The position numbers and the translations under genes were made by a program. Of a stretch of 64,000 nucleotides of DNA, positions 31,513-32,349 are shown in pieces (position 1 is the first letter of the stretch; the number at the start of each line of letters is the position of its first letter). The stretch spans positions 74,503 to 138,502 of the forward strand of contig DASRGG010000005.1 of the NCBI GenBank assembly GCA_035651155.1, written 5' to 3'. The notes under the pieces are model-generated. The model ran no database searches, had not been told where the DNA came from, and saw only the letters and a program-made list of their open reading frames with translations. The DNA comes from Candidatus Limnocylindria bacterium (lineage in GTDB: Bacteria > Chloroflexota > Limnocylindria > P2-11E).

Positions 31513-31737
31513 CTCGAGCGCGTCCTTGCGCGGGGTCGCCGATCCGGCCCCGAGGAGGAGGTCCTCGACCTCGAGCGCGTCGAGGCTGTTGCCCTCGATC
31601 CGCGTCGTGCCATGGATCGTGCGAACCCATGCCCAATGGCGGAACCATTCCGCGTGCTGGGGATCGAGCGGCAGGTTCTCGAAGAGGCGACGGCGCTGCT
31701 CGAGGTCATCGAGCTCGCGCTTGGGCGACGGCAGGCG

Positions 31738-32349
31738 TTACGCGGGACGCTCCGTCACGTCGTGCGCGATGCATCGGCGGACGGCTTCCACGATCGCCTC
31801 GTGCTCCACGGCGAGCACGCGCGCGGAGAGCGTGGGCACATCGTCGCCCTCGTGCACCGGGACGCGCCGCTGCACGATGACCTCGCCGAGGTCGACGGTG
31901 TCCGGATGGACGCGGTGCACGGTGACGCCCGACTCCTTCGCCTTCGCCGCGAGCACCGCGGCGTGGACCTTGTCGCCGTGCATCCCCTTCCCGCCGAAGA
32001 ACGGCAGGAGCGCGGGATGGATGTTGATCACCGGCACGCCCGCGAGCTTCACGAAGAAGCCCGGGTCGAGGATGTGGTCGAACCCCGCGAGGACGACCAG
32101 GCGCGCGCCGGCCCTCACGAGCGCGTCCGCGATCGCGCCGTGGGCCTCCGCGCGCGACCCGTGCGCGGCCACGGTGAACGCCGCGTGCGGGACGCCGGCC
32201 CGCTCCGCGCGGATGAGCGCGGGGACCTTGTCGCGATTCGACGCGACGAAGACGACGCGCGCGTCGAGCGCCCCCGACGCGCACGCGTCGAGGAGCGCCT
32301 GCAGGTTCGTGCCGCGGCCGGAGACGAGCACGCCGATCGGATAGGTCAT
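31738..32349 (-). CDS. purN: Phosphoribosylglycinamide formyltransferase PurN
   Basis: IGVLVSGRGTNLQALLDA...VVLAGFDHIL...HPALLP...HDKVH-like motifs. Its ATG overlaps the purM stop (ATGA). Confidence 0.9.
   Translation of the reverse strand: MTYPIGVLVSGRGTNLQALLDACASGALDARVVFVASNRDKVPALIRAERAGVPHAAFTVAAHGSRAEAHGAIADALVRAGARLVVLAGFDHILDPGFFVKLAGVPVINIHPALLPFFGGKGMHGDKVHAAVLAAKAKESGVTVHRVHPDTVDLGEVIVQRRVPVHEGDDVPTLSARVLAVEHEAIVEAVRRCIAHDVTERPA

Follow-up and report, generated by a model that had tools for sequence, protein, structure and literature searches.

We analyzed a 64,000-nucleotide (nt) stretch of Candidatus Limnocylindria bacterium DNA (contig DASRGG010000005.1, positions 74,503 to 138,502; hereafter the window), in which an open frame encoding a Fic family protein follows the stop codon of purN in the same frame and lacks a canonical start codon. 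Our analysis gives high confidence that a deletion of ~90-120 nt took the opening 5-10 codons of fic along with the entire purN-fic spacer, and that the deposited 279 amino acid (aa) protein, which starts at an internal GTG, is a gene-caller artefact. The start-less arrangement is a lineage-specific deletion allele, and its cause is ordinary. The reading as a whole, namely that of a class II Fic gene which lost its spacer, was mis-annotated and continues to be expressed through reinitiation of translation at a CTG codon just behind the purN stop, is a tentative one, to which we give just under an even chance. The finding in the window is modest, and the pattern of start codons across the family of this gene is more interesting.

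Both purN and fic are encoded on the minus strand of the window, the supplied letters being those of the forward strand (Table 1). The Fic frame opens with the CGC codon at 31737-31735, directly after the purN TAA, closes at the TGA at 30675-30673, and is intact over its 354 codons (1062 nt), with no frameshifts, internal stops or indels. The original prediction held that this frame has no canonical start for 75 codons behind the in-frame purN stop, and this was confirmed: the earliest in-frame ATG, GTG or TTG is the GTG at 31512-31510 (codon 76), 226 nt downstream of the purN stop. It also held that the region upstream of this GTG is a convincing Fic N-terminus, which agrees with our results. 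The 75 start-less residues alone matched a 67%-identical orthologue (BLASTP E = 2e-27), 54 sequences show no variation at columns such as F19, D25, W31, W37, T44, T45, I47, E48 and G49, and the GC content at third codon positions of this part (0.88) is similar to that of the remainder of fic. Judged by this homology, the 75 codons can be taken as genuine Fic coding sequence. The first five codons after the TAA (RLPSP) are of uncertain origin, and clear Fic homology begins at codon ~6-9 (KRELDDLEQ). The equivalent 75-codon stretch of relatives contains only 0-4 canonical-start codons, so that such a run is not itself unusual; the unusual feature of the window fic is that its true start site is gone. 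The only striking replacement within the start-less segment is R35W (31633-31635, minus strand), where the EWFRHWAW of the window stands against EWFRHRAW in at least 95% of the 110 homologues aligned with it. There is no second Fic copy in the window. Long open reading frames (ORFs; up to 730 aa) also occur in noncoding frames or on the opposite strand (28449-30641, plus; 31706-33025, minus; 31420-32496, plus; and others), and since spurious long ORFs follow from a GC content of 71%, here an open frame by itself is poor evidence for a gene.

The position of the ancestral start was located by comparison with the family (~940 homologues found, of which the best 120 clusters were analyzed). The informative relatives came from a metagenome scan and from exact-protein look-ups, and a scan of species-representative genomes gave three close loci. 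The best 120 homologues are mostly 359-362 aa long and cover 97-100% of the 354-residue frame, and 86 of the 120 share the start M-x-Y-R-L, exactly 35 residues before WFRHRAW. In an ungapped alignment, this start coincides with part of the purN tail of the window, five codons before the Fic frame opens behind the TAA and 80 codons before the position of GTG 31512. Homologues thus do not naturally begin at that GTG, which the original prediction had named as the result that would make the upstream similarity spurious. In most relatives, the counterpart of GTG 31512 encodes a Val in the interior of the gene, and its context (RKDALEV) is also internal. We therefore rejected GTG 31512 as the true start, given that the orthologues extend 80 codons further and that a protein starting there would have a helix cut and the inhibitory helix removed. 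An out-of-frame ATG at 31709 (139-aa ORF) combined with a frameshift was considered and rejected as well: no slippery site or SD (Shine-Dalgarno) sequence was seen, the conserved residues upstream lie in the Fic frame, and at this GC content spurious ORFs of such length are frequent.

Comparison of the junction with that of relatives points to the event that produced it. The conserved gene order in the relatives (Candidatus Limnocylindria, Chloroflexota) is purL-purF-purM-purN-fic followed by a convergent His_Phos_1 gene, and the purN-fic gap of syntenic relatives measures 73-103 nt. This spacer contains two tandem palindromes (for example TGGTACAAA-N7-TTTGTACCA, then TGGTAYAAT-N9-half-site), an extended -10-like element (TGnTAnnnT) that sits within the second palindrome, an SD and the start codon. 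Aligned against these relatives, the window shows a single missing block, and the absence of all of these spacer elements identifies a deletion as the cause. The 64 kb contain no copy of the covarying palindromes found upstream of fic in relatives, sites resembling a promoter or terminator are absent between 30400 and 32600 of the window, and an Rfam scan of the region gave no match above threshold. The purN tail beyond EAVRR comprises 11 aa in the window versus 8-11 aa in relatives, and this tail and its stop align with the purN ends of loci L001 and L166. Because the tail is homologous and of normal length, purN ends as it did ancestrally, and the deletion begins at the stop or a few bases past it. 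What remains of fic now stands directly behind the purN TAA, with the match in frame due to chance. The right breakpoint has three placements that are about equally good (alignment p 0.02-0.08, without correction for multiple tests): an ungapped one, in which fic codon 6 comes next after the TAA and RLPSP represents diverged codons 6-10; one in which the TAA corresponds to the Tyr3 codon, plus a 2-codon gap; and one in which the post-TAA bases survive from the 5' end of the spacer. The suggestion in the original prediction that a start had been lost recently is therefore essentially right, although the cause was deletion of the spacer and of 5-10 codons, not a point mutation. An identical junction is present in a 142-kb ENA contig (megahit k141) and in a Logan contig, a JGI contig encodes an identical 279-residue product, and the junction is also found in an NCBI contig with one single-nucleotide polymorphism (SNP) in purN.

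Table 1. Features of the purN-fic region of the window, and codons found at the conserved fic start position in relatives.
Feature	Position	Strand	Remarks
purN (phosphoribosylglycinamide formyltransferase), 203 aa	31738..32349	-	PF00551 Formyl_trans_N, E 5e-39 (Pfam)
purN stop TAA	31738..31740	-	frame shared with the Fic open frame after it
GGAG, sole SD-like element upstream of the junction, inside purN	31750..31753	-	15 nt before CTG 31734; duplex -6.4 kcal/mol
Fic open frame, whole: 354 codons + TGA	30673..31737	-	88% identity to P0001 and P0002 across 100% of length
Start-less conserved Fic N-terminal region, 75 codons	31513..31737	-	without ATG, GTG or TTG
CTG, near-cognate, 3 nt past TAA	31732..31734	-	candidate restart codon; putative start
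Inhibitory-helix motif TTRIEGN (residues 44-50)	31588..31608	-	fits (S/T)xxxE(G/N); E48 at 31594-31596
GTG, start of deposited 279-aa product (P0014)	31510..31512	-	residue 76, within predicted helix 70-91
Active-site signature HPFYDGNGRTAR (residues 181-192)	31162..31197	-	fits HxFx(D/E)GNGRxxR (consensus: PMC3667792)
C-terminal segment	30700..30882	-	predicted elements H286-296, H301-308, H312-324, E328-331, E338-341 (AlphaFold2 model)
Convergent histidine-phosphatase (His_Phos_1), real start GTG 30111	30111..30641	+	conserved purN-fic-HisPhos synteny
ATG at conserved start position			L001, L169, L007, L090
GTG at conserved start position			L168, L087, L088, L006
CTG at conserved start position			L167, L086, L175
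ACG at conserved start position			L166, L089
ATC at conserved start position			L171, L174
ATT at conserved start position			L172, L173

The protein encoded by the 354-residue frame harbors a Fic/DOC domain (PF02661; residues 97-199; E = 6e-19; 69.1 bits versus a curated Pfam cut-off of 24), and H181, D185, G186, N187, G188 and R192 of its active-site signature are invariant across 54 sequences. The inhibitory-helix motif (S/T)xxxE(G/N) defines class II Fic proteins when it lies N-terminal to the core (PMC10628234; PMC3667792), and HMMER aligned the TTRIEGN of the window onto the TVAIEGN of human FICD. In the AlphaFold2 model of the frame (pLDDT, the predicted local confidence score, 90.2), helices 6-20, 26-46, 54-61 and 70-91 precede the core and a domain resembling a winged helix-turn-helix (wHTH) is found at the C-terminus; Foldseek returned the full-length matches 4rgl, 8cil, 3eqx, 3zcn and 7cb8 over 344-357 columns. 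According to the motifs and the model, the gene is thus predicted to encode a class II Fic protein in which the inhibitory helix lies before the Fic core and a wHTH after it. With 16-27% identity to solved structures, this protein adds a divergent new member to the class II Fic-wHTH group, of which SoFic and CbFic2 are the type examples.

SoFic (Shewanella oneidensis SO_4266; PDB 3EQX, 3ZCN, 3ZEC) and CbFic2 (Coxiella burnetii; 8CIL) have the same three-part layout and fold as the window protein (Foldseek E ~1e-11, TM-score 0.65-0.69 over ~350 residues, identity 16-22%), with the inhibitory motif N-terminal to the core and a canonical HxFx(D/E)GNGRxxR signature; Dde_2494 and a Mycobacterium marinum Fic are further full-length fold matches. 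Unlike SoFic and CbFic2, the window copy has lost its promoter/operator region, start codon and N-terminal residues, and no solved SoFic-type protein has been reported with a non-canonical start. SoFic is reported to bind its own promoter less than 100 bp from its start and to AMPylate EF-Tu (bioRxiv 10.64898/2026.07.09.737422), and the former activity parallels the palindromic operators upstream of the window's orthologues. The best sequence match in the PDB is human FICD/HYPE (4U04, 6I7G; E = 3e-15), which covers residues 38-205 only and differs from the window Fic in being a eukaryotic membrane protein of the endoplasmic reticulum with TPR domains and no wHTH. Removal of the inhibitory glutamate renders Fic proteins hyperactive, and toxic if overexpressed (PMC3667792; bioRxiv 10.64898/2026.07.09.737422).

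For a protein of ~360 aa, gene calls in this family are anywhere between 264 and 403 aa long, and we retrieved the DNA of homologues with such odd lengths to survey their start codons (Table 1). Every non-canonical start codon proved to be a single-base variant of ATG located at the exact orthologous position. Near-cognate starts were confirmed in at least 8 of the best 120 clusters, and five more clusters have truncated calls. In all cases except L089 these starts lie 6-7 nt past a GGAGG, with SD duplexes of -9.3 to -11.0 kcal/mol (L089, -5.5), versus -4.1 to -7.8 for most ATG or GTG starts (medians -9.75 and -6.2 kcal/mol; Mann-Whitney p = 0.004, not corrected for phylogeny). Weak start codons are thus paired with strong SDs and ATG or GTG with weaker ones, L089 (ACG, weak SD) being the exception. 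In L086 and L166, not one in-frame canonical start occurs from the upstream stop to the conserved N-terminus. In our reading of the sequences, the upstream starts chosen by gene callers appear to lie within the predicted -10 element or ahead of it. A neighbour-joining tree shows the codon states scattered, with one clade (L172, L173, L174) keeping ATT or ATC throughout its divergence, and a single 90% cluster includes both an ATG form (P0125) and a CTG form (P0005). The neighboring purN and HisPhos genes have canonical starts, which indicates that near-cognate starts belong to fic itself and are no general trait of the organism. For these neighbors, a general use of odd starts was accordingly rejected as an explanation (purN starts with ATG and HisPhos with GTG at the conserved position, and the lengths of both are consistent in relatives).

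In Escherichia coli, AUU, AUC, AUA and CUG initiate at ~1-2% of AUG, and confirmed natural cases are very rare (bioRxiv 10.1101/063800); in Staphylococcus aureus, non-canonical starts come with extended SDs (PMC13009471). Translation of E. coli infC and pcnB (AUU) and of S. aureus infC (AUA), cvfC1 and ccpN is limited by non-canonical starts, as is proposed here for the Fic orthologues. Like the S. aureus cases, the orthologues combine a near-cognate start with a strong SD, and an output of a few % of that of AUG would be expected. Unlike infC, pcnB or ccpN, a single Fic orthologue group switches among ATG, GTG, CTG, ACG, ATC and ATT, and the ACG of some members lies outside the four stronger near-cognates in E. 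coli. The Fic starts would thus add new cases to the known mechanism of translational limitation, and they probably serve to keep a potentially toxic Fic scarce. The window itself retains no site of this type, the ancestral start position being now occupied by the purN tail. With at least eight natural CTG, ACG, ATC or ATT starts in one orthologue group, intact coding sequence, a strong SD in all but one and, in some cases, no canonical alternative, the family offers a comparative data set on the trade-off between start-codon and SD strength, as well as a warning that standard gene callers systematically mis-size genes of this family.

Two tandem palindromic operators were observed upstream of fic in L001 (3898-4000), and such operators are also present in the ~110 nt before fic in L086, L087, L088, L166, L171, L172, L173, L090, L176 and L007. 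Their half-sites covary by lineage (TGGTACAA, TGGTAGAA, TGGAAGAA, CGGTAATA), and the second palindrome overlaps an extended -10-like sequence (TGGTATAGT, TGGTACAAT or TGGTAGAAT). This arrangement resembles the autorepression proposed for SoFic and CccR, and what is seen in the relatives looks like autorepression by the Fic wHTH through these palindromes; the covarying operators are candidate binding sites for the wHTH of such Fic enzymes. In some relatives the fic cassette and its operators lie away from purN (L169, 1-1030; L170; L172, 944-1500), following an unrelated gene in L169 and L170 and divergent to a gene for an extracytoplasmic function (ECF)-type sigma factor in L172, which suggests that a cassette with its own promoter has moved in evolution. 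In the two closest relatives (L001, 3960-4000; L169, 990-1030), the ATG is set ~22 nt further from the ancestral SD position (CCCACGG...) and comes with a new, weaker SD (GGGGAG or GAGGG), which looks like a leader insertion specific to this sub-clade.

If fic is expressed in the window, it would be transcribed solely as the tail of the pur operon mRNA, as it has no promoter of its own. In the reading that we tentatively prefer, ribosomes that end purN at the TAA would restart, without an SD, 3 nt further on at CTG 31734-31732, the only route to a near-full-length Fic that retains the inhibitory helix: no canonical start lies upstream of TTRIEGN in the window, and this CTG, which lacks an SD at a functional spacing, is the one near-cognate codon available there. 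The small hairpin that encloses the TAA, itself not significant, would already have been melted by the terminating ribosome. Output would be very low, ~1/1000 of that of PurN by rough extrapolation from E. coli data, a regime to which the family seems adapted given the CTG, ACG, ATC and ATT starts of many orthologues. Missing from the product would be the conserved xYRL residues of the N-terminal beta-bridge, and fic would have lost its likely autoregulation. Coupling at a stop-start distance of +3 nt (E. coli galT/galK) and SD-less coupling are both documented (PMC12548453), and a short stop-start distance is required for reinitiation (PMC10666635; PMC12548453). Like galT-galK, purN-fic is co-oriented with a +3 nt gap, if the CTG is accepted, and further upstream in the pur operon the purM stop and the purN ATG overlap by ATGA (32346-32349), an arrangement that would already couple these two genes. 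Known coupled pairs restart at ATG, GTG or TTG, so that an SD-less restart at CTG is an extrapolation, and the purN-fic arrangement was born of a deletion, unlike the conserved design of coupled operons. If expressed in this way, fic would be an unusual case of SD-less reinitiation at CTG. A still wider scenario, in which the family is held at few molecules per cell by weak, switching starts offset by SD strength and autorepression, and in which the window fic has been rewired to a purN restart, seems to us rather unlikely. Under it, the dose of this ATP-consuming AMP-transferase would be set by how strongly the purine operon is expressed and no longer by a repressor loop of its own.

Several observations weigh against expression from CTG 31734. 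The sole GGAG upstream lies 15 nt away, versus 6-7 nt for the GGAGG of nearly all near-cognate orthologues; with this spacing SD-driven initiation is unlikely, which leaves termination-reinitiation only. The post-TAA bases, CGCCTGCC, are as similar to the start of the ancestral spacer of L166 as to fic codons, and nothing in the sequence suggests that the CTG is under selection. Residues Y3 and L5 and those of the beta-bridge (xYRL) are missing from the window copy; when the orthologue P0001 is modelled at full length, its residues 3-4 form a beta-bridge (pLDDT ~95), and L5 is nearly invariant in the family. The deletion is known from one genotype only, which fits a very recent event, and the loss of promoter, ribosome-binding site and start is a priori inactivating in most cases. 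The initiation at CTG proposed in the original prediction is thus plausible in that orthologues do carry CTG, ACG, ATC and ATT starts, but it lacks in the window the GGAGG at 6-7 nt that accompanies them.

These same observations bear on the possibility that fic is a very recent pseudogene, silenced by the deletion and making no protein, with a frame still intact for lack of time. We regard this as a substantial possibility, somewhat below even and only a little less probable than reinitiation. Every expression signal of the relatives is absent from the window, no in-frame near-cognate codon has a usable SD, the conserved beta-bridge residues are lost, RLPSP with its two prolines is ill-suited to the start of the first helix of the family, the lesion is confined to one genotype, and R35W is a unique change at a column that is at least 95% conserved in 111 sequences. 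Of the usual marks of a pseudogene, however, the window shows the lost expression signals and neither frameshifts, stops nor relaxed selection. Its terminal branch carries 11 replacement and 36 silent changes, indistinguishable from those of its two closest, functional relatives (7/52 and 11/42; Fisher p = 0.27), and its two changes at columns conserved to at least 95% (R35W and A82V) are no commoner than usual, ranking it 28th of 111 sequences, with no indel or stop in the 1062 nt. We estimate from the 36 silent changes that neutral drift over more than ~7% of the terminal branch would show as an excess of replacements or indels, and that a silencing deletion would accordingly have to fall in the last ~5-10% of that branch. 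The retention of fic at the same place across the class also suggests that it is not easily dispensable. Because the contigs with the deletion allele are identical or one SNP apart, outside fic, no ratio of replacement to silent rates since the deletion is measurable. The lack of decay means that either the deletion is very recent or fic is still under selection, and the tests for relaxed selection (branch replacement/silent counts and conserved-column changes), which gave no signal, do not separate a functional gene from one that has just died. The original prediction drew on a real feature and named the right possibilities, but its claim that Fic is tied translationally to purN in all three cases goes too far, as a recently lost start would entail no translation.

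The remaining explanations appear far less probable. That the annotated 279-aa protein is real, as a constitutively active Fic that starts at GTG 31512 and lacks the inhibitory helix, is very improbable, even though this GTG is the earliest canonical start and has a weak AAGGA 10 nt upstream (duplex -5.1 kcal/mol), and Fic proteins relieved of inhibition are active (PMC3667792). Such a product is not credible because three N-terminal helices and the inhibitory glutamate would be absent and residue 76 lies in the middle of helix 70-91, which in the model makes folding doubtful; the GTG and its context are internal coding sequence in properly started relatives and not a start signal, the 75 codons upstream have changed no more than the rest of fic, and a Fic without the glutamate is toxic on overexpression (PMC3667792; bioRxiv 10.64898/2026.07.09.737422). 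Readthrough of the purN TAA into a 558-aa PurN-Fic fusion carrying Fic activity, which the original prediction had raised, is scarcely probable. The two frames are the same and only the TAA separates them, but a random deletion would leave the frame shared one time in three by chance, and UAA, recognized by both release factors, is the tightest stop. The small hairpin with the TAA in its loop is not significant (fold z = -1.18), there is no leaky context, Rfam element or suppressor tRNA in the window, and none of the best 120 homologue clusters contains a PurN-Fic fusion. An assembly or sequencing artefact, with a normal spacer and start in the real genome, is equally hard to credit: all sources are metagenome assemblies whose read sets may overlap, but the junction recurs in several of them, the SNP in the NCBI contig points to a different consensus, and the relatives' spacer repeats no junction-flanking sequence, so that assembly collapse is not expected. 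In sum of annotation, the deposited record ('Fic family protein [Candidatus Limnocylindria bacterium]') is most probably wrong, and the locus is a start-less deletion allele or a dead gene, a distinction that matters because a Fic protein without its inhibitory helix would be a deregulated toxin.

Among the neighboring genes, ARAGORN called a 93-nt tRNA-Arg(CCG) at 35569-35661 (minus strand), within a long open frame among the pur genes; to judge by its length and place, this is probably a false positive that arose from GC-rich coding DNA. The convergent His_Phos_1 gene was deposited as a 148-aa product from ATG 30195, a call that is too short, given that orthologues measure 176-177 aa. GTG 30111 of the window lies exactly at the start of these orthologues (VPILDIRRHAQ versus MPILDIRRHAQ).

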